From: Patescibacteria group bacterium
Lineage (GTDB): Bacteria; Patescibacteriota; Dojkabacteria; GCA-002793355
Direction: 5' to 3'
Length of the DNA: 64,000 bases
NCBI GenBank assembly: GCA_016860985.1
Contig: BOKM01000001.1
Location: 984,040 to 1,048,039 of the forward strand
The notes beneath the pieces are model-generated. The model was not told where the DNA came from. It did not search any database and saw only the letters and a list, made by a program, of their open reading frames with translations. Shown here piece by piece: positions 1,218-21,550 of the stretch (positions within the stretch are counted from its first letter, which is position 1; each line of letters starts with the position of its first letter). The position numbers and the translations under genes were made by a program.

Positions 1218-1289
1218 GCGGGCGTAGTTCAGCGGTAGAATGTCTGTTTTCCAAACAGAAGATCGCGAGTTCGAATCTCGTCGCCCGCT
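1218..1289 (+). tRNA. tRNA-Gly (anticodon UCC)
   Basis: GCGGGCG-TA-GTTC-AGCGGTA-GAAT-G-TCTGT-TTTCCAA-ACAGA-AGATC-GCGAG-TTCGAAT-CTCGT-CGCCCGC-T. The 7-bp acceptor stem is perfect and the T-loop is canonical. A T-run follows. Confidence 0.9.
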
Positions 1290-1480
1290 TTTTTTATATC
1301 GTGCACAATATATCGTCAACGAGCTATTTCCTTAAAAATATCACTAATTATCGAGACTTCTCCATTGGATTACTTGACAAACTTTTTACCCTGGTTTCTC
1401 TGTTGGAAGAAAATGAAAATTATACATGAACTATAAAAATAGCACTCGAAATTTGCTTATAGGTCTAGATTGCTCTTAAG

Positions 1481-1496
1481 TACTACCATGTAGTAG
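1481..1496. promoter_or_regulatory. Putative repressor operator (inverted repeat TACTAC-N3/4-GTAGTA) upstream of the first ATPase operon
   Basis: TACTACCATGTAGTAG sits between a -35-like TTGCTC (1470-1475) and the start codon at 1534, overlapping a -10-like TAGAAT. It is a variant of the operator found at sites 2-5. Confidence 0.45.
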
Positions 1497-1533
1497 AATA
1501 ACTAATGAACCATAATAGTTATAACCTACTCAA

Positions 1534-3426
1534 TTGATGTCAGAAATATTTAAAAACAAAAAATTACAATACCTTGCACTAGTAGCAATATTTGCTTTGA
1601 TTCTAGAAATCTTGGGAATCTTTCAACTTCACTTGCCAGCAATACTCGAAATACCTATTTATATTTTAGTAATACTAATTATTGGAAGAAAGGTGCTTTT
1701 GGGCGGTGTGCAGTCCTTGTTTAGATTCAAGTTCTCTAATATTAATTTACTTATGACTGTTGCTATTTTAGGAGCTATTTTAATAGGTGAAATCGAAGAA
1801 GCTGCGGTAATAGTTGCGTTGTTTGCCGTAAGTGAAACACTTGAAGACCTTGGTATTGAAAGTAGTCAATCAAAAATTGAAAGCCTTATTAATAAAACTC
1901 CTAAATATGTGACTTTGAAAACAGGCGAGAAAGTATCTATTGATAAAGTTTCTATTGGGGATATGTTCATTGTTAAGCCAGGAGAAACAATTGGATTAGA
2001 TGGTAAGGTTTTGTATGGGGTATCAAGCATTGATGAGTCATCTATAACTGGTGAACCTCTTCCCTCAGAAAAGGTAATTGGCTCAAATGTTTATGCCAGT
2101 ACGATAAATAAAGAAGGATACTTGGAGATTGAGGTAACGAAGTTAGCAGAAGGTAGTGTTGTTCAAAGAATAGTTGAATTAACTTCTATGGCTACTCTAA
2201 ATAAAGCAAGTTATCAAAAAGTGATTGAGAAATTCTCTAAATACTATACCCCTGCTGTTCTATTACTAGCAATTTTAATTGTACTAATTCCAACAGTATT
2301 ATTTAATCAAAGTTTTCTTGAATGGTTTGAGCGTGGTATTACATTGTTACTTATTGCTTGTCCATGTGCATTAGTTATCTCAACTCCTATATCTATTTTT
2401 TCGGCAGTAGGTAATGCATCAACAAAAGGAATAATAATCAAAGGTGGAAGATTTTTAGAGGAGTTGGGCTCGGTTAAAGCAGTTGCATTTGATAAAACAA
2501 GAACATTGACGTTGGGTAAACCTGAAATTAAAGAAGTAATAACTTTCCAAGGAGCATCTAAAGAAGAGGTTTTAGCATGTGCGGCTGGAATGGAAAATCA
2601 TTCGGAACATCCTTTGTCACAGGCTGTAATTCAATATGCAGAAAAAAACAGACTGACTTTACATAAAGTAAAAGATTTTAAGTCAATTACTGGGAAAGGA
2701 ATCTCAGCAGACTGTCTGATATGTAATGTAGGAACACATTTGTTAGGAAATCTTGAGCTGATTATAGAAAACAAAAATGATGTGACTGAAGAAATAAAAG
2801 ATACGCTTAACACTATCCAGTTGCGAGGAGATACGCCTATACTATTAGCTGATAATAACGGTGTAAAAGGAATTATTGTTATTACTGATCAGATAAGACC
2901 AGAAGCTAACAACCTAATTGATAACTTGAATAAACTTGAAGTAACTCCAATTATGTTATCGGGTGACAATACTAAGACTGTTTCCTCTGTTGCAAATTCA
3001 TTACATATAAATGACTACTATGGTGATTTACTACCTGAAAATAAAGTCGAAAAGTTGAAAGAATTACAATCAAAGTATAAGACAGTTGCTATGGTAGGTG
3101 ATGGAGTCAATGATGCTCCTGTACTAGCAACATCAAATATTGGCATAGCTATGGGGGCAGTTGGCTCTGATGTCGCTATTGAATCTGCAGACATAGCTTT
3201 GATGAATGACAATATAGAATTAATTCCCTTTCTTATTAAACTGGGGAAATATACAAAGAGCACGATTCAATTTAATATTGGTCTAGCATTAATTACAAAA
3301 TTGATAGCATTAGTGTTAGCTAGTCTTGGCATTATTGGGCTTAGTTTAGCAATTTTTGCTGACGTTGGAGTTACAATCATAGTAATCCTTTTGAGCTTAA
3401 ATATTTTCAATTTTAATCAAAATTAA
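1534..3426 (+). CDS. P1B-type heavy-metal-translocating P-type ATPase (CadA/ZntA-like, no N-terminal HMA domain)
   Basis: Motifs seen: TM6 IACPCALVISTP (the CPC metal site), DKTRTLT (phosphorylation site, a variant of DKTGT), GDGVNDAP (hinge), TGEP. Eight predicted TM helices. Confidence 0.9.
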   Translation: MMSEIFKNKKLQYLALVAIFALILEILGIFQLHLPAILEIPIYILVILIIGRKVLLGGVQSLFRFKFSNINLLMTVAILGAILIGEIEEAAVIVALFAVSETLEDLGIESSQSKIESLINKTPKYVTLKTGEKVSIDKVSIGDMFIVKPGETIGLDGKVLYGVSSIDESSITGEPLPSEKVIGSNVYASTINKEGYLEIEVTKLAEGSVVQRIVELTSMATLNKASYQKVIEKFSKYYTPAVLLLAILIVLIPTVLFNQSFLEWFERGITLLLIACPCALVISTPISIFSAVGNASTKGIIIKGGRFLEELGSVKAVAFDKTRTLTLGKPEIKEVITFQGASKEEVLACAAGMENHSEHPLSQAVIQYAEKNRLTLHKVKDFKSITGKGISADCLICNVGTHLLGNLELIIENKNDVTEEIKDTLNTIQLRGDTPILLADNNGVKGIIVITDQIRPEANNLIDNLNKLEVTPIMLSGDNTKTVSSVANSLHINDYYGDLLPENKVEKLKELQSKYKTVAMVGDGVNDAPVLATSNIGIAMGAVGSDVAIESADIALMNDNIELIPFLIKLGKYTKSTIQFNIGLALITKLIALVLASLGIIGLSLAIFADVGVTIIVILLSLNIFNFNQN

Positions 3427-3446
3427 TATTATTAATAATAAAAGAA

Positions 3447-3812
3447 ATGATAAGACTAACTGGTGAATTAGAACAATTAGTTTTAAAGATTTTAAAGGAA
3501 GAGAATAAGCCTTTGATACCTGCTGAGGTGCAGAGACTAATTCAGCCGAATAAGAGTCTTGCATATACTACAGTAATGACTGTATTAAAACGATTATATG
3601 AAAAGAAGCTTTTGAAAAGAGAAAAGCATAGTACTGCATTCGCCTATAGCTATGTAAAGTCAGATTCTGGCACATCAGATTTGAAAAATATTTTTGATGG
3701 ACTGTTAACATCTTATGGTGATATTGCCATCTCAAATTTTTTTGATTCAGTAAACACCAAGCCCGAACATAAAGAATTGTTAAAGGAATACTTGAAAAAT
3801 GCAAAGAAATAA
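3447..3812 (+). CDS. BlaI/MecI/CopY-family winged-helix transcriptional repressor (paralogue 1)
   Basis: 121 aa. The signature AYTTVMTVLKRLYEKKLL is the recognition helix of the penicillinase-repressor family. There is no C-terminal CxCx4CxC copper motif. The gene overlaps the downstream M56 peptidase by 14 nt. Confidence 0.85.
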   Translation: MIRLTGELEQLVLKILKEENKPLIPAEVQRLIQPNKSLAYTTVMTVLKRLYEKKLLKREKHSTAFAYSYVKSDSGTSDLKNIFDGLLTSYGDIAISNFFDSVNTKPEHKELLKEYLKNAKK

Positions 3813-4728
3813 TTATAAAAATCATAAAATAGCTTTCAACGTCCTTGTTTATATGTTGTGGAGCATCTATTTTATGACTCTACTATTGGCAACATTCAAG
3901 TTATTATCAGGGATTGCAATGTACAGCGTTCATACATTGGAAGCCATCTCTAATCAGTTACCACTTTATAACGTTATTACGCCATTAGAGTTAATTCTTT
4001 ATTTTATATTTTCCGTCATAGTTTTTAGTCTGTGGATCAAAATATTTAAAGCATCTACCAAATTAGTTAAAGTAATAAAAGAAACTAATCGATTTCTAAA
4101 GAATCATTCCGCGATCTACTCCAATGAGTTAAATGTATATGTAATTGACACTAAAAAATTACTTGCATTTACATCAGGTATACTGAAATTTAAGATATTC
4201 ATCTCAAAGGGTGCAATTAATTCATTAAAAGAAGAAGAGCTCGAAGCAGTTATTCTGCATGAGATGCATCATGTGAGAAGCTTTGATCCTTTAAAAAATA
4301 TTATTAACAATTTTGTAGAGCGGTCAACACTGTGGTTTCCATTAAAAGAACAGCTTTTTCAGAACTATAATACTATCTCAGAACTTTCAGCAGATAAATT
4401 TGCTAGCGACAGTATGAAATCCGAGGATTCTCTTTTAAAGGCCTTAAATAAGCTTCTAAATATTTCAAATCCAACAGCATTTAGCATTGCAACGTTTATC
4501 TCAAAATTAGAACGAATTCCGATATTAACAGGTAATACTATTTTTTCTTTTAAAAGCAATTACTTAGTACTCCTAGTAAGTATTGGGATCATCTCATATC
4601 TTGGAGTATCACTAAATAGTTTTAACCCCATTGATAAATGCGATGATTTCAATCAGTGTGTCAGTTCTCTGTTAACGAAGGATCAGATGTTAGAGTCTGA
4701 CACAGGAATGTCGTGTATTAGTAATTAG
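3799..4728 (+). CDS. BlaR1/MecR1-like M56 family zinc metallopeptidase (signal-transducer type) with a Cys-rich C-terminal tail
   Basis: N-terminal TM helices and a HExxH motif in ILHEMHHVRSF. It lacks a penicillin-binding sensor domain. The C-terminus ends in ...DKCDDFNQCVSSLL...GMSCISN. It is translationally coupled to the BlaI-like gene. Confidence 0.8.
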   Translation: MQRNNYKNHKIAFNVLVYMLWSIYFMTLLLATFKLLSGIAMYSVHTLEAISNQLPLYNVITPLELILYFIFSVIVFSLWIKIFKASTKLVKVIKETNRFLKNHSAIYSNELNVYVIDTKKLLAFTSGILKFKIFISKGAINSLKEEELEAVILHEMHHVRSFDPLKNIINNFVERSTLWFPLKEQLFQNYNTISELSADKFASDSMKSEDSLLKALNKLLNISNPTAFSIATFISKLERIPILTGNTIFSFKSNYLVLLVSIGIISYLGVSLNSFNPIDKCDDFNQCVSSLLTKDQMLESDTGMSCISN

Positions 4729-4789
4729 ATAGGCTTTTTAGGCTGTTCTTAAAATATTCTATTTTTAGGATTGACACATACAATTTAAT

Positions 4790-4806
4790 CTACTACACTG
4801 TAGTAG
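4790..4806. promoter_or_regulatory. Putative operator (CTACTAC-ACT-GTAGTAG, contains a cop-box-like TACAC-TGTA) overlapping the -10 region
   Basis: Perfect 7-nt inverted arms. TTGACA -35 at 4771-4776, 13 nt upstream. Start codon of the downstream operon at 4833. Confidence 0.6.
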
Positions 4807-4832
4807 TTTAAATTGTTAGTATATTCCTTAAG

Positions 4833-5720
4833 ATGAAGAAGAATGAGAAATTACCAATAGATTTTGAGAAAGTTGGTGAAGAGATTGTAAAAAAAGAGCG
4901 AGTAACTCATATTTCAATTAGTACTGAATTATTAATACCTATTTCAATATTTTTTGGCGCAATTATTATCTCGTTATCAATTTTCTTTAGCTTTAGAGGA
5001 TTGAACATATCATCCAACACTAATACAGCGAAAGCTCCTGATGCTACTACAGAGGTGCAACAGCAAGCACAAGCTCCAGATAATCCAACTGTTAGTATAG
5101 ATAAGGTTAAATCATTATTTAATGGCGGCGGAATAAGCTTTGGTAACGAAAATAGTAAGCTCTTATTTGTCGAGTTTTCAGATCCTAGTTGTCCATATTG
5201 TCATATTGCAGGAGGTAAAAATCCAGAACTAAATAAACAAGTTGGAAAACAGTTTGTCTTAAAGGCGGATGGCGGTACGTATGTTGCTCCTGTACCAGAA
5301 ATGAAAAAGTTAGTAGATGAAGGCAAGGCATCATTTGTATGGATCTATACAAATGGCCATGGAAATGGAGAATTGGCAACTGAGTCTCTTTACTGCGCAA
5401 AGGAAAAAGGAAAGTTTTGGGAAGCACATGACTTGTTGATGAGCAATTCAGGATATTCGCTTATTAATGACACAGTTAAAAATGATAGAAGTAAATCACC
5501 AGAACTAGCTAAATTCCTGAGCTCTGTGATAGACAGTTCCTTTATGCAGGGATGTTTAGAAGGTAAAAAGTATAATGCGAAAATTGCTGAAAACCAAAAT
5601 TTGGCTAGAAGCATGGGAGTAAGTGGTACACCAGGATTCTTTGTAAATGAAACTAATTTCGCAGGTGCATACAGTTTTAATGATATGCAAAGTGTTGTAT
5701 CGGAGGCATTGTCTAAATAA
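4833..5720 (+). CDS. Membrane-anchored thioredoxin-fold protein, DsbA-like thiol:disulfide oxidoreductase (CPYC)
   Basis: N-terminal TM anchor. Active-site context VEFSDPSCPYCH matches DsbA/thioredoxin CxxC. First gene after operator 2. Confidence 0.7.
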   Translation: MKKNEKLPIDFEKVGEEIVKKERVTHISISTELLIPISIFFGAIIISLSIFFSFRGLNISSNTNTAKAPDATTEVQQQAQAPDNPTVSIDKVKSLFNGGGISFGNENSKLLFVEFSDPSCPYCHIAGGKNPELNKQVGKQFVLKADGGTYVAPVPEMKKLVDEGKASFVWIYTNGHGNGELATESLYCAKEKGKFWEAHDLLMSNSGYSLINDTVKNDRSKSPELAKFLSSVIDSSFMQGCLEGKKYNAKIAENQNLARSMGVSGTPGFFVNETNFAGAYSFNDMQSVVSEALSK

Positions 5721-5724
5721 TAAA

Positions 5725-6384
5725 ATGGAAAATAATATGAAAGGTTTTGCAATTGGAGTTACTCTTATTTCATTCATTATGCTCTTCGGATTTGTTTATC
5801 TTCTTGGGAAATCTACACCTTCCCAAGAGGATAATGCTTCAATCCTGAGTATTGATAACGATGATTGGGTATATGGTAATAGAGATTCTAAGGTTGTTCT
5901 GGTTGAATATGCTGATTACGAATGTGAAGCATGTGCTGCAGCCTCGCCTATGGTTGAAACTATTAAAGCGGAATATAAGGACAAGATAGCTTTTGTTGTT
6001 AGGTATTTTCCTTTACCTGGTCACCGATATTCAAAACAATCGGCCTATGCAGTAGAATCAGCAGGCAAGCAGGGTAAATACTGGGAAATGAATAAATTAA
6101 TGTTTCAAAATCAAACTGATTGGTCTGGTAACCCTAAGAGTGATGAAATCTTTAGAGGTTATGCACAAGACTTAGGGTTAAATATTGAGCAATTCAATGC
6201 TGATACAAGTTCAGTACAAACAAAAGACAGAGTTGATCATGATTTAAAAAGCGGAAAAGATTTGAACATTCAAGGGACCCCAACTTTTTTCTTGAATGGT
6301 AGAAAAATACCTACACCACGTAATATTGAAGCTTTTAGAAATCTTTTGGATGAAGAAATTAACAAATCAAGCACGATAGAATAA
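5725..6384 (+). CDS. DsbA-like thiol:disulfide oxidoreductase (CEAC), membrane-anchored
   Basis: The start was moved to ATG 5725 (MENNMKGFAIGVTLISFIMLF), just after the upstream stop at 5720. Motif VEYADYECEACAA. 220 aa. Confidence 0.7.
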   Translation: MENNMKGFAIGVTLISFIMLFGFVYLLGKSTPSQEDNASILSIDNDDWVYGNRDSKVVLVEYADYECEACAAASPMVETIKAEYKDKIAFVVRYFPLPGHRYSKQSAYAVESAGKQGKYWEMNKLMFQNQTDWSGNPKSDEIFRGYAQDLGLNIEQFNADTSSVQTKDRVDHDLKSGKDLNIQGTPTFFLNGRKIPTPRNIEAFRNLLDEEINKSSTIE

Positions 6385-6386
6385 AT

Positions 6387-7607
6387 ATGAATATATTTGG
6401 TATAAATACAAACCAAGCTAAAACAATAGACAGTAATTTCGCGTATCTTGATCAGAATAAATATTTTTATTTCGATTCAGCATGTCAAACACTCAGACCG
6501 CAAGTAGTCATACAATCAGAACAAGATTACTATCAAGAATATAATGCTTGTGGACATAGAGTAAAGTATGAATGGGGCAAAACTGTTGATAGCCTTACTG
6601 ATGAGACGAGAGAGCTACTTCTTAAAGCCGTTAACAAAACTTCTAAAGAATATACTGTAGCCTTTTGCTTAAATACTACTCATGGAATCAATACGATTCT
6701 TCATCAATTAAATCCTAATTTATACGATAGGATTGTAACATCTGAAATTGAACATAACTCAGTCTTCTTAAATGCCTTAACATGGAGTAAAAGAAACAAT
6801 AAGAAAAGGATTGTATGTAGTAGGCATGAGGATGGCGGATTGGAATATAAGAAAGAAGATTTGAGTAAAGCAGTTGTACTTGTAAACGAAACTAGCAATA
6901 TCGATGGGAGAAGACTTACTAATATAAATGAATTAGCTAAAGATGTTCACAATGTAGGTGGGATTATCTTACTAGATGGTGCTCAAACATTTGGTCATGA
7001 CATTCATTTCCTAAAAGATATTGATTTCGATGCAATTTTGGGCTCTGGACATAAGATGTATGGACCAAGTATAGGATTTATTATTGTAAAAAAGTCATTA
7101 TTAAAAAATTTAGATAACTACCTGATTGGTGGCGGTACTGTTGAAAATGTAAGATATAATGATTTTGATCTTGTTTCAAATGATGATGAATTATATGCTC
7201 GAATAGAAGCAGGATTACAGAATTTTGCAGGAATAATAGGACTCGGTAGTGCAATAAAATGGAAAAGTGATTTTCGGTATGGAAGTCTTAATGCCACAGA
7301 ATATGAGCAAGAATTGAAAACATATTTACTGCAAGAACTTTTGAAAATAAAATCAATTAATCTACTGAGTTTAAATCCAAGCTCAGTTGTTTCCATATAC
7401 TCCAATAAAATTGATGCACATAAATTAGGTGCGCTGCTTTCTACAAAACAAATAATGTGCAGAACTGGATATTTTTGTTGTCACTATTATTTAAAGGAAC
7501 TCAAACAGTTACCACCACTACTTAGAATTAGTTTAGGGTTAAATAACACAAAAGAACAGATCGATTTTTTGGTTGAGAACTTAGATTTCATTATTAGTAA
7601 ATTTTAA
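6387..7607 (+). CDS. Class V aminotransferase-fold protein, divergent cysteine desulfurase-like (SufS/CsdA family)
   Basis: FDSACQTLRPQ (N-terminal motif), SGHKMYGP (PLP-lysine motif S-G-H-K), and MCRTGYFCC near the C-terminus (RxGxHC-like catalytic Cys loop). 406 aa. Confidence 0.65.
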   Translation: MNIFGINTNQAKTIDSNFAYLDQNKYFYFDSACQTLRPQVVIQSEQDYYQEYNACGHRVKYEWGKTVDSLTDETRELLLKAVNKTSKEYTVAFCLNTTHGINTILHQLNPNLYDRIVTSEIEHNSVFLNALTWSKRNNKKRIVCSRHEDGGLEYKKEDLSKAVVLVNETSNIDGRRLTNINELAKDVHNVGGIILLDGAQTFGHDIHFLKDIDFDAILGSGHKMYGPSIGFIIVKKSLLKNLDNYLIGGGTVENVRYNDFDLVSNDDELYARIEAGLQNFAGIIGLGSAIKWKSDFRYGSLNATEYEQELKTYLLQELLKIKSINLLSLNPSSVVSIYSNKIDAHKLGALLSTKQIMCRTGYFCCHYYLKELKQLPPLLRISLGLNNTKEQIDFLVENLDFIISKF

Positions 7608-7618
7608 AATCCAAAACT

Positions 7619-8659
7619 ATGCTTTGTATAATAATATTCGTACTCTTTCTGCTTTTTTTTCCAATAGGAATGTTTTCAAAAACGTACCGTAATCTTTTTA
7701 AAAAAGCATGGATATGCGCATTCAAAAAAATTACTCTAAAACCGTGTGATGAAGACTTTGGAAGCGAAATTAAAAATCTAATTGTAGGGAAATTGTTTTT
7801 CAGATTTCCCCGAATTGCAAAATTTCTTGATAAAACAATGACTTTCTGGGCTATACTTTTCGTCGTTCTATCTGTTTGGAGCTTGCTTTATACAGCTAAT
7901 GCTGGATTAAACTTGTGGGTCTATGATACATGTAATCCGACAAATGGTGAGTCTTGTTCACTTGGAGGAGAATCATGTGGATTAAATACTGAACAAGCAC
8001 CCAGCATAATTGAAACTCTTTCAAGAGTACCTGAGCGATTTAAAAACTGGCAAGCAAAGGAATACGTTTCAGAAAGTGCTACATACTACAATCCGTATGA
8101 TACCTCGAAATCTGATGCCGTAGAATTTATTGATCCAGGATGTCGATTTTGTAAAAAACTTTGGGGCAACATAAAAGAATCAGGTTTTGAAAACGAGCAT
8201 AATTTAACGTATGTTGTCTACCCTATACCTCAAAAGGATTCTAATTCGGGATACCACTTTCCTCATTCTTATTACATTTCCTCTGTTTTAGAATCAATTA
8301 AATTAAGTCCTCCGCCTGAGATAACTAATTCAAATATTCCAAACGATTGGAGACTATTAGATAAATTGTTTACTGCGCAAGATGATAAATATAAAACAGA
8401 CCTGCAAAACGCAATAAACACGCTTTACACAAGAGAGGAAGTCACATTAATTATTCATGGCTACTTACGAGAATTTGGCTATAGTGATTATCAGATTATT
8501 GAAATTGAAAAATTGGCTAAGTCGGATAAGGTACAGGATAGTTTGAGTAAACAAGCTACGATTGTAACTGATAAAGTTAAGACAGTGAAAATACCAACAA
8601 TTATATTTAATGGAAAGCGTTTTGACAGGGTTGTAGATAGAGAAACTTTATCAAAGTAA
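7619..8659 (+). CDS. Membrane-anchored Cys-rich protein with a DsbA-like CxxC motif
   Basis: N-terminal TMs. CNPTNGESCSLGGESCG. VEFIDPGCRFCKK resembles the DsbA active site VEFFSFFCPHCYQ. Otherwise unassigned. Confidence 0.5.
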   Translation: MLCIIIFVLFLLFFPIGMFSKTYRNLFKKAWICAFKKITLKPCDEDFGSEIKNLIVGKLFFRFPRIAKFLDKTMTFWAILFVVLSVWSLLYTANAGLNLWVYDTCNPTNGESCSLGGESCGLNTEQAPSIIETLSRVPERFKNWQAKEYVSESATYYNPYDTSKSDAVEFIDPGCRFCKKLWGNIKESGFENEHNLTYVVYPIPQKDSNSGYHFPHSYYISSVLESIKLSPPPEITNSNIPNDWRLLDKLFTAQDDKYKTDLQNAINTLYTREEVTLIIHGYLREFGYSDYQIIEIEKLAKSDKVQDSLSKQATIVTDKVKTVKIPTIIFNGKRFDRVVDRETLSK

Positions 8660-8694
8660 TTTTACTAGCCTCTTTGAAAATTTGCCAAAGCATG

Positions 8695-8709
8695 CTACAC
8701 TTGTAGTAG
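8695..8709. promoter_or_regulatory. Putative operator (CTACA-CT-TGTAGTAG, exact cop-box TACAnnTGTA) upstream of the second BlaI-like gene
   Basis: Inverted repeat 25 nt upstream of the start codon at 8734. -35-like TTGCCA at 8682-8687. Confidence 0.55.
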
Positions 8710-8733
8710 TTATTTTATAGTAATTTAATAAGT

Positions 8734-9099
8734 ATGAAATCTTTAGTCCTTGGTGACCTCGAACAAGAAATATTATCAATTATTTGGGCTTCAAAAGAGC
8801 CAATGAATGTTCGAGCTGTACTCGAACAACTTAAAGAAAAGTCGGCATATACAACTGTTATGACAGTGATGACAAGAATGGAGAAAAAAGGTATTCTTAA
8901 ACGAATACCTGATGGTAATTCGTATGTATATACTTATACGGAAGATAGAGAAGAATTTGCGGGTAAACACTTAGGTGAAATTTTTAACTCATTAGTAGAC
9001 ACATATGGAGAGTTGGCAATTTCACAATTTGTCGATTCTATGAAAAGTGATAGCAAAAATGTTAAACTTCTCAAAGACTTTATAAATAAAAATGAATAA
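8734..9099 (+). CDS. BlaI/MecI/CopY-family transcriptional repressor (paralogue 2)
   Basis: 121 aa. AYTTVMTVMTRMEKKGIL. Same length and layout as 3447-3812. Overlaps the next gene by 8 nt. Confidence 0.85.
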   Translation: MKSLVLGDLEQEILSIIWASKEPMNVRAVLEQLKEKSAYTTVMTVMTRMEKKGILKRIPDGNSYVYTYTEDREEFAGKHLGEIFNSLVDTYGELAISQFVDSMKSDSKNVKLLKDFINKNE

Positions 9100-10045: not shown

Positions 10046-10075
10046 TTCTAAAAGTTCTTGACAATTAATCATTAA

Positions 10076-10095
10076 GCTACTACACTTGTAGTAGC
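10076..10095. promoter_or_regulatory. Putative operator (GCTACTACA-CT-TGTAGTAGC, perfect 9-nt arms, cop-box TACAnnTGTA)
   Basis: TTGACA -35 at 10058-10063. The operator overlaps the -10 position. Start codon at 10117. Confidence 0.65.
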
Positions 10096-10116
10096 TTAAT
10101 TTGTTATGAACTATGA

Positions 10117-11706
10117 ATGAAAAGTAAATCGAAAAAATCAGAACCTCAATTACAAGAATGCAGTTACTCTGTAAAGGGAATGCATTGTGCAAGTTGTGAA
10201 GTCCTCATTGAAAAAAAACTTATAAAACAAACTAATATAGAAGGTGTAGATGCCTCTACTTCAGACAACAAAGTAATAATAGAATATAAAGGAGAGAAGC
10301 CTACTCTAGATCAATTGAATAAATTGTTTAAAGCTGAAGGCTATAGTTTTGATGAAAATGACAGTAAAGATGCAGTTCAAGATGATGTTGAAAAGTTGTT
10401 TCAAGTTGAAAATGGTAAGTTAACTTTTAGCACACGCAAACTCAACTCTATTCTCTTTATTATCGTGGGGGTTGCGGGTATTTTCTTAATCTATAAACTA
10501 TTTGAACGATTTGGATTAGCTTCTGCCGTCTCTGTAAACGCAACATCTGCATTACCTGCCTTTTTCTTTTTTGGTATTGTGGCTGGCTTTTCGAGCTGTG
10601 CAGCTCTTGTTGGTGGAATTGTTCTGTCAATGTCAAAGCAGTGGTATGAGCTTCACTCTACGAGCAATTCTTTTTCAGAAAAACTACAGCCACATCTATT
10701 GTTTAATATCGGGAGAATTGTTTCATTTGCAATACTTGGAGGTGTTTTAGGTGCGATTGGAAGTATTTTTACAATATCACCTTTATTTACAGCTATTGTC
10801 GCAATTCTTGTCTCTATAATGATGGTATTGTTAGGTTTGCAAATGCTCGGGATTAAGGCTTTTCAACGATTTCAGTTTAGAATGCCTAAAGTGTTTTCAA
10901 GGTACATTGCTGATGAATCCAATTTTGCAGGTAAATACATGCCTATGATTATGGGTGCACTTACATTCTTTCTTCCTTGTGGGTTCACCATTACGGCTCA
11001 AGGGTTAGCTATGGTATCAGGAGATCCTATTCGTGGAGCACTAATAATGTCGTTGTTTGCTTTAGGAACTTCTCCAATGCTTTTATTCATTGGAATGTCT
11101 AGTACAAAGATGTATGAAAAAGCTCATATTGCTGAAAATTTTATGAAGTTAGTTGGTATTCTCGTTATTTTTTTCGGACTTTCAACTGTCAATATGCAAT
11201 TAGTTGCCCTCGGACTTCCAAATTTAAATGACATTAGTTTCGGACAAAGTAGTATTAACCAGAGTAATAACATAGGCTCTTCAAATAGCACTCTTCCAGA
11301 AATTGTAAATGGAAAGCAAATCGTTAAGATGGAGGCAAGTGCTTCAGGTTATTCGCCTAATAATATTAAAGTAAGAGTTAATGTCCCTGTTCGATGGGAA
11401 ATCAATGACACTGGAACTTCTGGCTGTACTAACGCCATTATCTCTAAAGGTCTTTTTGATGGTCAGATAGATCTTGAAACAGGAAAAGTTGCAGTTAAAG
11501 AGTTTACTCCAACAAAAGTCGGGAAATATAGATTTAGCTGTTGGATGGGAATGGTAACAGGGGTTATTGAAGTTGTGGATGATACCGGTAAAACAGTAAG
11601 TGATTCGGGAACAACTAATAATCAGGTTGTTGTTGAGTCAGGTGCTAAAGGGTGCGGTTGTGGTGGAGGTGGTGGAAATTCATGCGGAGGTACAAAAAAC
11701 AACTAA
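10117..11706 (+). CDS. Three-part fusion protein: N-terminal HMA metal-binding domain, polytopic permease with conserved intramembrane Cys (CcdA/DsbD- or TauE-like), C-terminal cupredoxin-like domain
   Basis: GMHCASC (HMA MxCxxC). About 8 TM helices with FSSCAALVGG and FFLPCGF. The C-terminal soluble domain YSPNNIKVRVNVPVRWE...SGCTNAII...FSCWMGMVTG is paralogous to the standalone protein 13557-13994. A Gly/Cys-rich tail CGCGGGGGNSCGG follows. Confidence 0.7.
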   Translation: MKSKSKKSEPQLQECSYSVKGMHCASCEVLIEKKLIKQTNIEGVDASTSDNKVIIEYKGEKPTLDQLNKLFKAEGYSFDENDSKDAVQDDVEKLFQVENGKLTFSTRKLNSILFIIVGVAGIFLIYKLFERFGLASAVSVNATSALPAFFFFGIVAGFSSCAALVGGIVLSMSKQWYELHSTSNSFSEKLQPHLLFNIGRIVSFAILGGVLGAIGSIFTISPLFTAIVAILVSIMMVLLGLQMLGIKAFQRFQFRMPKVFSRYIADESNFAGKYMPMIMGALTFFLPCGFTITAQGLAMVSGDPIRGALIMSLFALGTSPMLLFIGMSSTKMYEKAHIAENFMKLVGILVIFFGLSTVNMQLVALGLPNLNDISFGQSSINQSNNIGSSNSTLPEIVNGKQIVKMEASASGYSPNNIKVRVNVPVRWEINDTGTSGCTNAIISKGLFDGQIDLETGKVAVKEFTPTKVGKYRFSCWMGMVTGVIEVVDDTGKTVSDSGTTNNQVVVESGAKGCGCGGGGGNSCGGTKNN

Positions 11707-11719
11707 TACAATTACATAA

Positions 11720-12697
11720 ATGATTCTAAGAATTAGTCCAACAAAACTTATTGTTCAAATATTTGTTACTCAATCATTAGTACTAGTATTTCTTGGAATA
11801 ACAAATATTATTGATCACCTAACGCTTTTTTATAATACCTTCACCCATTCTCAATTTATTTCTTTTGGTGTTTTAAGCTTAATTGTTAGTTTGGTAGTAC
11901 TTATTGTTTCTATTGCATACGGTCTCTCTTTGTGGCTCAATACTGTTTATGAGATAAGCAATGGAAAGCTCACGATAAAGAAGGGACTTTTAAACAGACA
12001 GGTATTAGAAATTAAATTAAGCAATATTGTACAAACTGAAAGTAATTTACCATTTTTAGGAAAGTTCTTTAATTATGGAGATATTTCATTTAAAACTGAA
12101 AATGGTGGGAAAACAATCAGGATTAAATCAATAACAGATGTACTAGATGTTCAAAAGTTTCTCCAAAACCAAAAAATGATTAATAGCAGTAGGCTTCCAA
12201 AAGTTACTAAAGAATCTATAGTTGAAATCATCAAAAACGGAGAGACAGATGAAATTGAATTCAAATCTAGTTTGAGATGGGATTTATCACTTCTAAAAGT
12301 AAATAAAGTATTAGAGAAATCAGTATTTAAGACAATAGTTGGATTTCTCAATGGCAATGGTGGATTGTTAATTGTTGGTGTTAGTGACACAGGGGAACTC
12401 TTAGGCTTAAATAATGACTATTTAAGCCTTCCAAAGAAAAATATTGATGGTTTCGAAAATCATATGACTCAACTCTTCGGCGAATGTATAGGGATTGAAC
12501 ATAGGCACTTAATAAAAATATTTCACTTCGTTATTGAGAATAAAGAAGTTGCGGTTGTGAGAATTAAGCCAAGTAAAAATCCAATTTATTTAAGGAATGG
12601 AGAAAATGAGGATTTTTTCTTGCGTACAGGAAATACTACCAGTTTACTTTCTGGGCATGAGATCTTTAATTATCTTAGATATCGTAACAAAATATGA
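11720..12697 (+). CDS. Membrane-anchored bPH_2 (DUF304/YdbT-like) domain protein fused to an AlbA_2/Schlafen-like putative DNA-binding domain
   Basis: Two N-terminal TMs. SNGKLTIKKGLLNRQVLEIKLSNIVQ...YGDISFKTENG matches bacterial PH domains. The C-terminus EIEFKSSLRWDL...KTIVGFLNGNGGLLIVGVSDTGELLG matches the AlbA_2 (PF04326) signature. Confidence 0.6.
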   Translation: MILRISPTKLIVQIFVTQSLVLVFLGITNIIDHLTLFYNTFTHSQFISFGVLSLIVSLVVLIVSIAYGLSLWLNTVYEISNGKLTIKKGLLNRQVLEIKLSNIVQTESNLPFLGKFFNYGDISFKTENGGKTIRIKSITDVLDVQKFLQNQKMINSSRLPKVTKESIVEIIKNGETDEIEFKSSLRWDLSLLKVNKVLEKSVFKTIVGFLNGNGGLLIVGVSDTGELLGLNNDYLSLPKKNIDGFENHMTQLFGECIGIEHRHLIKIFHFVIENKEVAVVRIKPSKNPIYLRNGENEDFFLRTGNTTSLLSGHEIFNYLRYRNKI

Positions 12698-13485
12698 AAA
12701 ATTTATTAACCAAATTACCCTTAGTTATTTCGTTGTTATTTATACTCGCTACATTGTTAGCTGTACTTGCTCCTGTATTTGCTTATTTAAAGCTAAACTT
12801 TTTATCTGACCCAATTTATTGGTTTTATCAGTGGTTTTGCCATCAAAGACCTTGGCGTTCATATCATATGTTTGATTATCAATATGCACTGGATGCGAGA
12901 ATGATTACTTTGTTTTTAGGTCTGGGTGTCGGTGGCTTATTAACATCAGTAAAAAAGTTAAAACCATTAAAATGGAAATATGTAATGATTGTTATCATAA
13001 TAATGATTGTTCCTATGGGAATTGATGGCATAACTCAATTAATTGCAGAGTTAAGTGTTATAAACAAAGTAACACAGTTGCCATTTTATGAGAGTACAAA
13101 TTTTATCAGAAGTATTACTGGTATTTTTGCAGGTGTTGGAATTTCAGTAGCATTATTTCCATATATTAATAATGGCGAATCTGTAGGTTTTAACAACGAT
13201 TATCTTAAAACAATACTTCTTGGAATGCTTATAACCTTTTTATTTATTCCTCTTTTTGTGTATCTATGGTTTGTATCCTCTACTAAATATACACCATCTT
13301 CAATGTTTATTGATTCATTACAGAGATTTCCAGGATACAATTATGAAGTAACAACTGGTGGCGGTCACTCAACCATCAATAGGATCATCAAAGAACCTAC
13401 AGATCTCTATAAGCAAAGAGAAAAGTATTATCAGAATAAGAATACTGGGCTATGCAGTGGTAGTACAAAAGAAAATTGTAATTAA
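12694..13485 (+). CDS. Polytopic membrane protein, DUF2085-like (CHQRP motif)
   Basis: Multiple TM helices. WFYQWFCHQRPWRSYHMF resembles the conserved CHQ-R-P-x-RSF motif of DUF2085. Low certainty. Confidence 0.45.
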   Translation: MKNLLTKLPLVISLLFILATLLAVLAPVFAYLKLNFLSDPIYWFYQWFCHQRPWRSYHMFDYQYALDARMITLFLGLGVGGLLTSVKKLKPLKWKYVMIVIIIMIVPMGIDGITQLIAELSVINKVTQLPFYESTNFIRSITGIFAGVGISVALFPYINNGESVGFNNDYLKTILLGMLITFLFIPLFVYLWFVSSTKYTPSSMFIDSLQRFPGYNYEVTTGGGHSTINRIIKEPTDLYKQREKYYQNKNTGLCSGSTKENCN

Positions 13486-13494
13486 TAATTGACA

Positions 13495-13516
13495 TACTAC
13501 TACATGTGTAGTAGTA
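13495..13516. promoter_or_regulatory. Putative operator (TACTACTACA-TG-TGTAGTAGTA, perfect 10-nt arms, cop-box TACAnnTGTA)
   Basis: TTGACA -35 at 13489-13494, immediately upstream. Start codon of the downstream operon at 13557. Confidence 0.65.
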
Positions 13517-13556
13517 TAACTAAGAATGCAGTAGATTAAATTTTAAATAACAAATA

Positions 13557-13994
13557 ATGTCTAAAAAGAATAAAAATATACAAGAAACTACCACAATTAA
13601 TGGAACAGGCGTATTGATTGGGATTGCTGTAATAGTTGTGATAGGTTTTGTCTTTCTTATTGGATCTGGAAATAATAATTCTGCAGATGTAAAAGGAGCA
13701 AGCTCAAGCGTTGTAAGTACTTCGGGAGATAAACAAGTTGTTGAAGTGACCGTTAGTGGCGGTTACTCACCTCGTACAATTAACGCCAAAGCAGGAGTTC
13801 CAACAATTATTCGCATGAAATCAGATGGTGCATATGGTTGTGAAAGAGCTTTTAGAATACCAAGTTTAGGAATATCAAAGACATTACCAGCAAGTGGTAA
13901 TACTGATATTGAAATTACTTCCCAAAATGCAGGTACCAGCTTAAGAGGTACGTGTAGTATGGGAATGTATAGTTTTGTAATTAATTTTAATTAA
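13557..13994 (+). CDS. Membrane-anchored cupredoxin-like metal-binding domain protein
   Basis: N-terminal TM. YSPRTINAKAGVPTIIRMKSDGAYGCERAF...GTCSMGMYSF is paralogous to the C-terminal domain of 10117-11706 (C...C-x-MGM). Confidence 0.55.
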   Translation: MSKKNKNIQETTTINGTGVLIGIAVIVVIGFVFLIGSGNNNSADVKGASSSVVSTSGDKQVVEVTVSGGYSPRTINAKAGVPTIIRMKSDGAYGCERAFRIPSLGISKTLPASGNTDIEITSQNAGTSLRGTCSMGMYSFVINFN

Positions 13995-14002
13995 TAATAT
14001 AT

Positions 14003-14227
14003 ATGAAATACCAAATAAATATTTCAGGCATGCACTGTTCAGGATGTAAGAACTTAATAACCATGTCTCTAGAAGACATTGGGCTAGAAGAAGTTGTTGT
14101 TGATCCTGAAAAGAATATTGCTACTTTCGTGACCGCTAATAAGGCTGAAGAGGTAGAAAAAGATCTTCAAGAAGTATTTAAAGAGTTAACAGACTATAAA
14201 TACTCTAATCTTAATATTATTGCTTAA
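14003..14227 (+). CDS. copZ: Heavy-metal-associated domain copper chaperone (CopZ-like)
   Basis: 74 aa. GMHCSGCKNLI (MxCxxC). Ferredoxin-like HMA length. Confidence 0.8.
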   Translation: MKYQINISGMHCSGCKNLITMSLEDIGLEEVVVDPEKNIATFVTANKAEEVEKDLQEVFKELTDYKYSNLNIIA

Positions 14228-14244
14228 TTTTTATTTAAATAACT

Positions 14245-14805
14245 ATGTCAAAATATATAACAATTTCACTCGTCATTATTTTCTTTGTACTTGGAACAGG
14301 TCTTGGCTATGTGGTATCACCACAATACTCAATGAACCAATATGAAAGTAAACAAATGGTAGATTTAGGTAAAGCTGATAAATATGTTGATTTACGGTAC
14401 ATAAATGCAATGATTGCACATCACAAGGGTGCGATGAAACTAGCAGAACAGGTTAAAAATGAATCTAGAAGACAAGATATTAAAGATTTAGCAAATATGA
14501 TTTTAACTGACGAACCCAAAGCAATTGCTGAACTATATCAATGGAAGAAGGATTGGTATAACGACACAACAGAAGTCGCTTCAATGGAAGTTCCAAATTT
14601 AGGTACATATGATGAAAAGTTGGATTGGAGATTTTTAAATGCTCTTATTACTCATCACGAATCTGGAATTGAAATGACAATGGAGATTCAAAAGAAATCA
14701 ACAAGAAATGAAATCTTGAACAATGCAAATGCTGTAGAAGACTTTTTACATAAAGGTAAGATCAAATTAAGTCAAATGAGAACTGATTGGTACGAAGTCA
14801 AATAA
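14245..14805 (+). CDS. DUF305 family protein (periplasmic, copper-resistance associated)
   Basis: N-terminal TM. Duplicated AHHKGAMKLAEQ and THHESGIEMTMEIQ, the H-H repeats typical of DUF305. Confidence 0.65.
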   Translation: MSKYITISLVIIFFVLGTGLGYVVSPQYSMNQYESKQMVDLGKADKYVDLRYINAMIAHHKGAMKLAEQVKNESRRQDIKDLANMILTDEPKAIAELYQWKKDWYNDTTEVASMEVPNLGTYDEKLDWRFLNALITHHESGIEMTMEIQKKSTRNEILNNANAVEDFLHKGKIKLSQMRTDWYEVK

Positions 14806-14829
14806 TTAACCTACTATCATATAAATAAC

Positions 14830-17142
14830 ATGGAAAAAATAACAATACCTATTAAGGGAATGCACTGTGCAAGTTGTGCATTAACAATTGAGAAAGCAAT
14901 TTCCAAAGTGAATGGAGTTGACTCAATTAAAGTAAATTATGGCACAGAAAAAGCAACTATTGAGTTTGATAAAACTGCAACATCTATAGACCAAATGAGC
15001 GAAAGAATAAAGCCATTTGGCTATGAATTGCAAAATGAAGTTGCAATGCCAATGAGTCACGGAAATATGTCTGCAAATGAACATGCAGAACACTTAGGAC
15101 TGGACAAAAGCAAGCAAGAAAAACTTAAGGAACTTGATGATCAAAAAGCTAAAGTCGAATTTGTATTGCCAATAGCAATAATGATCTTTGCTTTAATGAT
15201 GTGGGAAATTAGTGCAAAATCATTCCCAAATGTAGTTCCTGCATTTTTTCTTCCAATGCAACTATACTCCACAATGATGATGATTATTTCTTCTGTAGTA
15301 CTGTTTTGGATTGGACAACCTTTTTTAAAGGGCATTGTAAACTTCATTCAATATAAAGTTGCCAATATGGACACTTTAATTGGAATTGGTACTTTAACAG
15401 CGTATCTCTATAGCTCATTTGTTGTTTTATTCCCTAATATCGCACATTCGGCTGGACTTCCTGAAACAAATTACTTTGATGTTGCAATCGTTGTTATTGG
15501 ATTTATTGTCTTTGGTAAATATCTAGAAGCACGATCAAAGCTAAAAACAGGAGAAGCCATAGAAAAGTTAATGAATCTTCAAGCAAAGACTGCATTAGTA
15601 GAAAGAAATGGAGAAGAGGTTGAAATTGCAATTGATATGGTGCAACTTGATGATGTCGTCATCGTTAAACCAGGTGGAAAAATCCCTGTAGACGGCGTTA
15701 TTATCGAAGGCAAATCTTCAATTGATGAATCTATGGTAACTGGTGAGCCAATTCCAGTCGATAAAACAGTTGAAGACAAAGTTATCGGAGGAACAATAAA
15801 CAAACAAGGTACATTCAAATTTAAAGCTACAAAAGTTGGTTCAGATACTCTTTTGGCAAGCATTATTAAGATGGTTGAGGAAGCACAAGGTTCTCGAGCA
15901 CCAATCCAAAAATTGGCAGATCAAATTTCTGGTGTTTTTGTACCTGTAGTACTTATAATAGCTGTTCTGACCCTAATCATATGGTTGGCAGTTGGGAGTC
16001 AATTTATGCCCTTTAACGAAGCTCTTACCTATGGATTATTATGTTTCGTAGGTATCTTAGTAATTGCGTGTCCATGTGCTTTAGGTCTTGCTACTCCTAC
16101 AGCGATTATTGTAGGGGTTGGTAAAGGTGCTCAAAACGGTATTCTTATTAAAAATGCTGAAAGTCTAGAAAAGTTGCATAAAGTTAATACCATTGTTGTC
16201 GATAAAACAGGTACAATTACAAAGGGCAAGCCTGAAGTTACAGATATTCTTCCTTCTTATGCCGATGAATCTCTTGACGGAGTTGAAATACTAAAATTAA
16301 TCGCTTCATTAGAAAAGAACTCGGAGCATCCATTAGCTGAAGCAATCAAGGAAAAGGCAAAATCTATGGATGTACAACTAGCAAAAGTTAATGACTTCGA
16401 AATCATTGAAGGTAAAGGATTAAAAGGTACTATTGATGGGAAGATGTACTATGCTGGCAATTTAAAGCTTATGGATGACTTAAATCTTGATTACGATAAG
16501 GATTTAATTGATAAATTGTCAAAGCAAGGTAAAACCCCAGTACTCTTTACAGATGATAAAAAGGTGTTAGCAACAATTGCAATTTCAGATACTATTAAAG
16601 AATCAAGTGCAGATGCAGTTGCAAGACTACATAAGCTCGGTGTTAAAGTTGTAATGCTTACTGGTGATAATCGAAACACTGCAAAATACATTGCAGACTT
16701 AGTAGGAATCGATAAAGTCTTTGCAGAGGTATTACCAAGTGAAAAAGCGGATAAGGTTCGTGAACTACAAGCAGAGGGTTTGGTTGTCGCAATGGCAGGA
16801 GATGGTGTAAATGATGCACCTGCACTCGCACAATCTGATGTTGGAATAGCTATGGGTACAGGTACTGATGTTGCAATTGAATCAGCAGACATAACATTGC
16901 TTGCGGGGGATATCTCAAAGATCCCACAAGCGATCAAGTTGTCAAAGAAAACAATGGCAACTATTAAGCAAAATCTCTTTTGGGCATTTATCTACAATGT
17001 TGTTGGTATTCCATTAGCGGCTGGATTACTCTTTCCAATTTGGGGAATTCTATTAAATCCAGTATTCGCAGGCTTAGCAATGGCATTTAGTAGTGTTTCT
17101 GTTGTTACAAATTCACTGAGATTGAAGTTTGTTAAGATTTAA
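14830..17142 (+). CDS. copA: Copper-translocating P1B-type ATPase CopA
   Basis: N-terminal [14 protein letters not shown] in [31 protein letters not shown]. 770 aa. Confidence 0.9.
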
Positions 17143-17161
17143 TTTCTTAAATAATTAATGT

Positions 17162-17719
17162 ATGAAAAAAGAAGTATTAGGAGGTTTGATCATTGTAGCA
17201 ATTGTTGTTGGAGGTTTAGTTTTCTATTCATTGAATAATAAACAAAAATCAGACACTTTAACGAATCAACCTCAGCCGACCTCAAGTACAACGCCAACAA
17301 ATACAGTCGAAGAAACAGAGAAGTATGTGTTTACAGGAAATAAGGGTGAAACACTTCAATTGGTTGACGGAAAGGTATCTATTCCTACTAATGGATTCGA
17401 GGTTAATAAAGTAAAGTTCTTTAATGTAACTTTAGCTGATGGAACCACAGTCTATTTTATGGTCTTAAAAGATGCTGAAGGTAAATTTAGAGTTGCAGCT
17501 AATGGCAATAAACAGTGTGCAAAGTATGGGAAAGGTTATGTGCAAGAAGGAAACAAGCTTATTTGTACAGTTTGTGAAAAGAGTTATTCCGTTGAAGATT
17601 TTGCTATTGAAAAACCAGACTGCAACCCATACCCAATTAATGCAAATGAAAAGGTTAATGGAAGCAATGTTGTCATAGGTGTGAGCGAATTAGAAACTGT
17701 GACATCGCTATTTAAGTAG
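17162..17719 (+). CDS. Membrane-anchored Cys-rich hypothetical protein
   Basis: N-terminal TM. Thr/Pro-rich linker. The C-terminal CxxC-containing region is NGNKQCAKYG...ICTVCEKSY...PDCNPYP. Last gene of the co-directional block. Confidence 0.45.
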   Translation: MKKEVLGGLIIVAIVVGGLVFYSLNNKQKSDTLTNQPQPTSSTTPTNTVEETEKYVFTGNKGETLQLVDGKVSIPTNGFEVNKVKFFNVTLADGTTVYFMVLKDAEGKFRVAANGNKQCAKYGKGYVQEGNKLICTVCEKSYSVEDFAIEKPDCNPYPINANEKVNGSNVVIGVSELETVTSLFK

Positions 17720-17730
17720 CGTTAAAAGTA

Positions 17731-17776
17731 TAGTGGGTAGTAATAATACATACTACCCACTAGTTTGTGCCTTTTT
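17731..17776 (+). terminator. Rho-independent terminator-like hairpin
   Basis: Perfect 12-bp stem TAGTGGGTAGTA / TACTACCCACTA with an 8-nt loop, followed within a few nt by CCTTTTT. Located directly after the stop at 17719. Confidence 0.5.
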
Positions 17777-18158
17777 AGAACGATTTCTTTTTTAAGTGTA
17801 GGCAAATACCAAATAGTATTATTAAAAAATTAATTGGTAAAAAAGCAAAAGAGACCAACCAACTAATCCAGTTAAATGAAGATGATCTCATAATCATTCC
17901 ACTTTTCCCATGCGTAAATTTCATGTTTATATTATAATAAAAATTAGTTAAGAATAATAAAATTATCGATGAAAAGTGAGGCACCTGTACTAAGTGCGGT
18001 TCGGACTTCATCCAGTGCCCCGCTTGACTGGTTTTGTGCGCAGCGCAAAACAGACAAGCAGGTACGTGTCCGGACCCAATAGACAACTTCGTCTGAATAA
18101 TGAATTGGAGTTCGACCGGAACGTGTGCATGTCCTTTGTATATATGCAGATTCATGCA

Positions 18159-18175
18159 AATCTCGTCGCCCGCTT
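18159..18175 (+). repeat. Exact 17-nt direct repeat of the 3' end of tRNA-Gly (AATCTCGTCGCCCGCTT; first copy at 1274-1290). Putative att-type boundary.
   Basis: The 17-mer is identical, in the same orientation, and sits 16.9 kb downstream of the tRNA. The geometry matches an element inserted at a tRNA 3' end. Confidence 0.65.
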
Positions 18176-18629: not shown

Positions 18630-18644
18630 TTAGAATTTGTTGCT

Positions 18645-21530: not shown

Positions 21531-21550
21531 AACAAGGAGTATAATGCACC

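Follow-up and report, generated by a model that had tools for sequence, protein, structure and literature searches.

Prophages and genomic islands of the classical kind, which use P4-type integrases, take the 3' part of a tRNA gene as target, reconstitute the tRNA and leave a partial 3' copy at their far end. T-loop and 3'-end sublocations of integration in tRNA genes were reportedly distinguished by Williams in 2002. The IMEX elements at dif and the pdif modules of Acinetobacter plasmids borrow XerC/XerD through dif-like 28-bp sites. Cis-mobilizable elements (CIMEs) are reviewed as elements that are flanked by attachment (att) sites and lack genes for integration and transfer; they occur as relatives of ICESt1 and ICESt3 in Streptococcus thermophilus and accrete in tandem (PMC5704250). 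In Dehalococcoides, islands low in guanine plus cytosine (GC) lie in tandem downstream of the structured-RNA gene ssrA, with direct repeats of about 20 bp of its 3' end; insertion is in or near the T-loop, the cargo is adaptive, and several islands without an integration module were proposed to be cis-mobilizable (PMC3146451). Here we describe a 16.7-kb island directly after a tRNA-Gly(UCC) gene of a Patescibacteria group bacterium (Dojkabacteria). It lies in a stretch of 64,000 nucleotides (contig BOKM01000001.1, positions 984,040 to 1,048,039 of the forward strand), the whole of which is called the window below. A preliminary description had drawn a single element from the tRNA to a repeat of its 3' end.

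Our analysis suggests another layout, in which two unrelated non-autonomous inserts would stand in tandem at a recombination hotspot, the 3' end of tRNA-Gly(UCC). We consider it quite probable that the larger insert is a CIME-like integrative island, not autonomous but dependent on a recombinase that acts in trans, and that the hotspot grew by tandem accretion. It is called CIME-like because no member of its family encodes a recombinase, hence the enzyme would come from elsewhere. The island is of an ordinary and known kind, notable only in that no copy seen carries a recombinase. What appears worth attention is a recombinase-less family with conserved ends in the Candidate Phyla Radiation (CPR), together with folded mini-elements.

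The island and the ends that define it

The features needed for the argument are as follows; loci of relatives are given by L numbers.

1217-1290, + strand: tRNA-Gly(UCC), the integration target, no CCA encoded (ARAGORN; Rfam tRNA match of 71.9 bits)
1274-1290, + strand: first copy of the exact 17-mer AATCTCGTCGCCCGCTT, at the end of tRNA-Gly
1291-18024, + strand: island proper, 16.7 kb, 33% GC (from composition, gene content, homology end and tRNA end)
1291-1390, + strand: conserved left end of the family, first bases TTTTTTATATCGTGCAC... (from an alignment over 94 nt with the start of the L009 cassette)
1299-1322: imperfect 24-bp palindrome TCGTGCACAATATATCGTCAACGA in the left end (the motif matches both strands)
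17988-18024, + strand: conserved right end of the family, ACTAAGTGCGGTTCGGACTTCATCCAGTGCCCCGCTT, 37 nt, unique in the window; last bases of the island ...CCAGTGCCCCGCT
18025-18175, + strand: mini-element, 151 nt, made of 134 nt of GC-rich structured sequence and the second 17-mer; first bases GACTGGTTTT...
18159-18175, + strand: second copy of the 17-mer AATCTCGTCGCCCGCTT, the right-hand repeat of the mini-element
18176-23821: further non-conserved genes at the hotspot (cupin, 180-aa, nucleotidyltransferase, 382-aa, MFS, PNPOx-like and 190-aa); first bases of this flank GTCTTGTC...

The two copies of AATCTCGTCGCCCGCTT, on which the preliminary description was built, were confirmed as exact and in the same orientation. 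They are the only matches in the window, both on the + strand, and no further match appeared when up to two mismatches were allowed; the chance expectation for such a repeat was 0.01 (100 shuffles). The 17-nt repeat is real and not a product of chance. It starts 3 nt before the end of the T-loop, takes in the 3' strands of both the T-stem and the acceptor stem, and stops 1 nt past the discriminator.

A shift in composition inside the block had been proposed as a check, and it was found. The GC content of 1291-18158 was 33.1%, compared with 40.0% in the rest of the window, and the tetranucleotide correlation with the background was 0.84-0.88 in the block and 0.93-0.96 in the other 5-kb segments. 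The tRNA-Gly loci of relatives were recovered with the conserved gene to the left of the tRNA as anchor; the tRNA-Gly(UCC) of the window is identical in L002, L006, L016, L017 and L018. In L017, the tRNA runs directly into the backbone, which consists of a 369-aa gene on the - strand, Ddl/SET, 5'-nucleotidase and BipA. The expected empty site, tRNA-Gly followed by the cupin gene, is present in L029, L030 and L026, with the cupin gene within 215-433 nt of the tRNA and, in L029, the 180-aa gene after it. L016 has a different 2-kb insert at the site. Because relatives show empty or differently occupied sites, we take the tRNA-Gly site to be a hotspot and the 16.7-kb block to be an insertion. The idea of an acquired island at the tRNA-Gly 3' end, lacking its own integrase and either fixed or mobilised in trans, is supported by the foreign composition and the empty sites, and also by the same island ends beside a different tRNA-Gly gene (GCC) in L010. 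The order in the window is tRNA, island, mini-element and flank. The variable region does not end at 18175; it continues with DNA of host-like GC (0.39 for 18176-23821), and the backbone common to the relatives resumes only at about 23,845.

Two very different tRNA-Gly(UCC) sequences, GCGGGCGTAGTTCAG... and GCGGGAATAGCTCAA..., were observed at the same locus in relatives (L002-L006, L016-L018, L026-L031). The distribution of these variants, A and B, is discordant with the identity of the neighbouring protein: variant B occurs in L003 and L030 (80-82%) and variant A in L006 and L026 (71-72%). Since the variants do not track neighbour-protein identity, it suggests that the tRNA-Gly gene itself was replaced, perhaps by elements integrating there. 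The sequence after the tRNA of L003 was tried as an element left end and rejected, as comparison with L030 identified it as the native trailer hairpin of variant B.

The left boundary of the island is the tRNA end, with the first island base (1291) directly after it. The right boundary is 18024, the point where nucleotide homology to L009, L010 and L011 stops. The identity was 92% to L009 and 84-85% to L010 and L011, and the homology spans the FtrD-like gene and a small gene on the - strand.

Both ends recur elsewhere. The left end, which also includes a TTGACA box, aligned over 94 nt with the left end of a cassette in L009 (z = 11; none of 300 shuffles was as good). The right end closes with CCCGCTT, the only exact match to the tRNA end (7 nt), and was found at the island end in L009, L010 and L011. 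In L009, it occurs a second time: after the island right end there is an 875-nt cassette with one open reading frame (ORF) of 202 aa, lying between two copies of the 37-nt right end, and beyond the cassette come, in this order, a mini-element, a tRNA 3'-end copy and a gene homologous to the 180-aa gene of the window. L010 carries a 7.7-kb copper-module version directly after tRNA-Gly(GCC), with a right end 85-93% identical to that of the window over about 300 nt and, 7 nt past the junction, the 24-nt motif seen at the same offset in the window (TCGT..AC.ATATATCGT..ACGA). In the window, L009 and L010, the left end always stands directly after ...CGCT, with a duplication of just 4-7 nt. Further copies of the end motifs inside the island, which would indicate more nesting, were searched for and none was found.

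These comparisons suggest that the island is a member of a family defined by its ends, with variable cargo: 16.7 kb in the window, 7.7 kb in L010 and 875 nt in L009. Because the same ends occur with unrelated cargo and at two different tRNA-Gly targets, we regard it as a family of site-specific mobile elements. Copies with different cargo keep both the left and the right end, which corresponds to the retained attL and attR by which CIMEs are recognised.

The absence of a recognisable integrase, excisionase or transposase ORF from the block, already stated in the preliminary description, was borne out by Pfam, NCBIfam and PHROGs. No recombinase was found in any related island copy or in any window ORF of at least 130 aa, and the Pfam-based gene content of the island includes no integrase, relaxase or transfer gene. 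A single sizeable ORF of the block (346 aa, 7619-8659) had no annotation and was considered as a hidden recombinase. This was rejected, since the protein contains a CxxC motif and two transmembrane helices and is a member of a thioredoxin-like family that is widespread in the CPR. An autonomous relative was also sought: scans of viral contigs for the pattern gave nothing, or unrelated GC-rich phages and chance matches in coding sequence, and BLAST against phages and plasmids gave no match. As no member encodes a recombinase and even the 875-nt cassette has the family ends, the enzyme would have to act in trans.

The shape of the ends leaves room for a different mode of movement. Hairpin-ended elements could move as single-stranded DNA, through an IS200/IS605-type (HUH/Y1) transposase or an integron-like integrase recognising folded sites; they would then insert, always in the same orientation, just 3' of a short target (...CGCT), and no real duplication of the target would arise. 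The ends are indeed asymmetric, each with a palindrome or hairpin (1299-1322 on the left, GAGGCAC...GTGCCCC on the right); insertion is always right after CGCT and in a single orientation, with a junction identity of 4-7 nt. The cargo is variable, the layout of L009 is cassette-like, and a recombinase in cis is lacking, as in non-autonomous IS200/IS605 derivatives and integron cassettes. On the other hand, no Y1/HUH transposase, TnpB or IntI was detected, whether in the window or at the related loci. The right-end hairpin is present in the window, the first L009 copy and L010; in the second L009 copy, other sequence stands in place of the 5' arm, so the fold is seemingly dispensable. Each of the three insertions occupies either a tRNA-Gly-type site or a copy of the element end, pointing to a recognition sequence longer than 4 nt, and a cargo of 16.7 kb is far above the usual size of IS200/IS605 derivatives. 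We consider single-stranded transfer unlikely, and site-specific recombination by an enzyme acting in trans remains our preferred explanation.

The mini-element and the second repeat copy

About 170 nt before the downstream repeat had been described as unusually GC-rich. The enrichment was confirmed (50% for 17975-18175 against 33% in the block), but its anatomy is composite: one part, up to 18024, is the right end of the island and the other belongs to the mini-element.

The mini-element is found on its own in relatives. L017 and L018 represent two populations of a related species with an identical flank protein. Right behind the tRNA, L018 has an extra 152 nt with a second AATCTCGTCGCCCGCT (a 16-nt repeat) at the end, an insertion that L017, whose flanks are identical, lacks; the 3' 71 nt of this insertion are 80% identical to 18105-18175 of the window. 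Related mini-elements follow the tRNA in L002, L006, L009 and L026, the last with a tandem pair. There are at least three sequence types, each with a hairpin at the start and a tRNA 3'-end copy at the end; they are unrelated to each other, and this copy is all that they have in common. L030 has an analogue built on a different tRNA-Gly sequence. Because homology to the other island copies stops at 18024 and the mini-element occurs without the island, we regard it as separate from the island: the 17-mer belongs to this independent entity and is not the island's attachment-site duplication.

This result disagrees with the earlier view of the two 17-mers as the two ends of one element. In that explanation, a single decayed integrative island would cover 1291-18158, the 17-mer being its att duplication and the GC-rich segment its arm. 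An exact 17-nt direct repeat of the tRNA 3' end is unlikely by chance, and a foreign block does lie between the two copies. Accreted composites can also move as a unit (PMC5704250), and the pair of 17-mers could be the functional ends of such a composite. However, the homology to three island copies ends at 18024 and not at 18158, L010 has the island right end with neither a mini-element nor a long repeat, and L009 has another mini-element type after the same island end. Moreover, the mini-element with the same repeat occurs without the island in L018, L002, L006 and L026, and is polymorphic between L017 and L018. The comparison of loci thus largely refutes a single element, and we regard it as improbable.

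Some versions of the mini-element fold better than shuffled sequences: the window version gave z = -2.9, L018 z = -2.5 and L006 z = -5.3. When the window and L018 were compared, all 36 pairs were kept in both and 8 showed double changes, against 0-1 when the partners were slid; this test used two sequences only, and the structure was derived from those same two. In every mini-element type, the tRNA 3'-end copy pairs with an upstream complementary segment. These data, and the persistence of the segment in lineages with flank proteins only 72-84% identical, would also fit a functional structured RNA, which might be tRNA-like or regulatory and transcribed together with tRNA-Gly or behind it, or might be a leader of the cupin gene; the repeat would then reflect function and not integration history. 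This is the least likely of the explanations considered, since there is no Rfam family match even at E <= 10, the sequence types (at least three) are unrelated, the tRNA copy is degenerate in L006 and L026 and the element forms a tandem pair in L026, it is absent from L016, L017 and the variant-B loci L004 and L005, the versions in L009 and L002 fold no better than shuffles (z about -0.9), the covariation comes from the two sequences that gave the structure, and pairing with a T-stem-like strand is equally expected of an att arm that mimics the tRNA T-arm.

Several known structures were tried on this segment. Rfam gave no match on the GC-rich stretch of the window at gathering thresholds and nothing credible at E <= 10 on 17700-18400, and a known structured RNA (tmRNA, SRP, 6S, RNase P or a riboswitch) was rejected. 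The tRNA-like GAGTTCGA and AATCTCGTCGCCCGCT are split by a 44-nt hairpin insert at the place of the T-loop (window 18105-18158; L018 3701-3754), and three stem pairs of this insert are compensatory, GCATG/CATGC in the window and GTTAC/GTAGC in L018. A decayed whole tRNA-Gly with a T-loop insertion was nevertheless rejected as unsupported, because the 5' part was no closer to the tRNA than shuffles. ARAGORN found nothing on the mini-element at the 80% threshold, even with the 44-nt insert removed, and a cloverleaf appeared only at 50%. A guide-RNA-like role (a scaffold with a 17-nt guide, as in TnpB or CAST homing) was considered because the layout is a GC-rich fold followed by a 17-nt tRNA match; it was rejected as all loci lack TnpB, IscB, Cas12k and Tns genes and as the mini-element types are mutually unrelated.

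Proposed order of arrival, and cargo

Taken together, the data suggest the following history. An older mini-element of 151 nt would have stood directly after the tRNA; its parts are a hairpin, a GC-rich structured spacer and, over 16-20 nt, a copy of the 3' end of the tRNA. Most simply, it would represent the two arms of an att site, either as the remnant of a tRNA-targeting integrative element or as a unit that can itself move in the manner of one. The 16.7-kb island, from a CPR lineage of about 33% GC, would have arrived later and entered between tRNA and mini-element through conservative site-specific recombination, the crossover falling within or beside the CCCGCT of the tRNA end. The recombinase would be supplied in trans from elsewhere in the genome, by a phage or by another element. 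The foreign composition, the empty sites, the boundaries, the ends common to different cargo, the two tRNA-Gly targets and the lack of a recombinase in every copy seen are direct results; we infer the order of these events, the type of recombinase and any present ability of the island to move. Tandem occurrence itself is observed three times: island and mini-element in the window, island, cassette and mini-element in L009, and two mini-elements in L026.

Several points weigh against this history. We infer mobilisation in trans, and no recombinase that could act so was identified in the 64 kb examined of a genome of about 1 Mb. The junction repeat of the island is short, 7 nt in the window and CGCT alone in L010; a length of 4-7 nt is at the low end for tyrosine integrases, and longer blocks of identity are usual at tRNA genes. 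The similarity of the left end to L010 is confined to the 24-nt motif (z = 2.4-3.1). Similarity between the right end and the tRNA beyond CCCGCT was not significant (score 19, shuffles 14.5 +/- 3.1); a reading of the right end as a diverged tRNA 3' half was dropped for this reason, and only the terminal CCCGCT(T) was kept as common. The modules in L014/L015 and L032 stand in other contexts, with neither a tRNA nor the family ends, and some of their spread may have gone by other routes. Finally, no excised circle or empty site was seen within the window's own species, and three contigs with its exact cupin protein all appear to have the island.

A further-reaching reading is possible, and we put it forward tentatively. 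CPR bacteria of the Dojkabacteria type may host a distinct family of recombinase-less cargo elements, from single-gene cassettes of 0.9 kb to metal-resistance islands of 17 kb, moved by a host or phage enzyme, with the GC-rich mini-elements and their conserved folds as a second, miniature class. Only the ends would define its members, about 94 nt with a palindrome on the left and about 37 nt on the right; they would insert in one orientation, either after ...CGCT of a tRNA-Gly gene or behind a right end of their own kind already in place, giving integron-like cassette arrays. If true, this would be a gene-capture platform in organisms thought to be poor in mobile elements.

The cargo of the island falls into two modules and a small terminal gene.

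About 1477-8661 (genes 1534-8659), + strand: thiol/disulfide module (Pfam)
7619-8659, + strand: membrane CxxC thioredoxin-like protein, 346 aa, at the end of the thiol module
About 8692-17720 (genes 8734-17719), + strand: copper module (Pfam)
17775-17927, - strand: gene for a small membrane-like protein of about 50 aa, N-terminal ~45 aa conserved in L009 and L010

The thiol/disulfide module contains genes for a P1B-type ATPase, a BlaI/CopY-like repressor, an M56/M48 sensor protease, two DsbA-like proteins and a NifS-like cysteine desulfurase, and was also found in L032 and L033. The homologues of the 346-aa protein include some annotated as PF13098 or as thiol-disulfide isomerases. The copper module encodes a BlaI/CopY-like protein, an M56/M48 protease, a DsbD-HMA-cupredoxin fusion, a Schlafen AlbA_2/bPH protein, DUF2085, a cupredoxin, a CopZ-like HMA protein, DUF305, a CopA-type ATPase and an FtrD-like protein. 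In total, the block has two P1B-type ATPases and two BlaI/CopY-like repressors, each repressor paired with an M56/M48 sensor protease. This cargo would give the host copper export (CopA, CopZ, cupredoxins and DUF305), and it would also supply CopY/BlaI-type regulation and the maintenance of periplasmic thiols and disulfides. TACAnnTGTA-type cop boxes (gctacacttgtagta) were observed upstream of the BlaI/CopY-like genes at 8690-8710 and 1480-1497, and at about 3355-3375 in L010, consistent with CopY-type copper regulation of both modules.

The copper module is collinear in L010, L012 and L014/L015 at 75-84% nucleotide identity. The genomes of L010, L012, L014 and L032 are uniformly near 33% GC, compared with 40-41% for the hosts of the window and of L009. 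Because the collinear copies sit in genomes of about 33% GC, this points to a lower-GC CPR lineage as the source of the island. In L032 (1440-1943), the thiol/disulfide half was observed beside an ArdA anti-restriction gene and a gene for a 1100-aa HTH protein, which hints that this module also travels on another, larger mobile element.

All 18 genes of the block had been placed on the + strand; we found 17 there and one, 17775-17927, on the - strand, whose protein is conserved in two other copies. A hairpin resembling a bidirectional terminator lies at 17731-17762. The protein (MKFTHGKSGMIMRSSSFNWISWLVSFAFLPINF...) is hydrophobic with a variable C-terminus, stands beside the island right end in the window, L009 and L010, and had no family matches. 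It could be a small membrane toxin or a stabilisation gene travelling with the element.

CPR bacteria (Patescibacteria) have tiny genomes, and their acquisition of adaptive genes is poorly documented. The locus is a clear example of a datable transfer in which a complete copper and thiol-stress module passed from one CPR lineage to another of different GC, with tRNA-Gly genes as landing sites. This landing site accumulates several kinds of insert (island, cassette and mini-elements), each lacking its own recombinase. If the acting enzyme were found, the short conserved ends would become a handle for site-specific gene delivery in genetically intractable organisms. For annotation, the locus is a caution that an exact pair of tRNA-end repeats need not bound one element.

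A second pair of repeats was observed in the window. The 17-mer AATCGGGGCGGCGGGAC, the 3' end of a tRNA-Pro on the - strand, occurs at 50119-50135 and 53555-53571 (chance expectation 0.00). It brackets 3.4 kb of 32% GC with no recombinase, and the genes encode a GHKL-ATPase protein of 576 aa, a C5 cytosine DNA methylase of 349 aa and a 75-aa ORF. This island (50119-53571) is probably a restriction-modification or defence cassette. A 12-mer near-repeat of a tRNA-Val 160 nt downstream lies within coding sequence, at about chance expectation, and was dropped. A homologue of the RuBisCO large subunit (form II/III-like, 520 aa) is encoded in the backbone at 37154-38716 on the - strand; RuBisCO has been reported in some CPR bacteria. 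A stand-alone RNase H/RVT_3 domain protein of 147 aa is encoded at 62605-63048, and after it comes a GGDEF protein that weakly resembles the Cas10 palm domain.

Comparison with known systems

The locus agrees with classical tRNA islands in its target, the 3' end of a tRNA gene, and in its foreign composition, and the 17-mer begins within the T-loop, as for T-loop-type integrases. It differs from them in that the tyrosine integrase gene beside the tRNA is absent from the window island and from the related copies examined. With the pdif modules, the family of the window shares short conserved ends, the lack of an own recombinase and variable cargo that, in pdif modules, includes metal and drug resistance, but nothing in the window elements resembles dif.

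The ssrA islands of Dehalococcoides are likewise low-GC islands in tandem directly after a small structured-RNA gene. Most of them carry a serine recombinase (DsiB) module beside attL, whereas none was seen in the window island. Their target is tmRNA and their repeats are uniform; here the target is tRNA-Gly and there are two kinds of junction, 17 nt for the mini-element and 4-7 nt for the island.

The streptococcal CIMEs are demonstrably derived from known integrative and conjugative elements, whose integrase mobilises them, while no autonomous parent or integrase was found for the window island. The window island further differs in its CPR host, in showing no conjugation genes and in its junction repeat of 4-7 nt. 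In their plan, the two are alike: CIMEs are att-flanked elements lacking an integrase (PMC5704250), and their tandem arrangement matches that of the island and mini-element in the window and of the three elements in L009.

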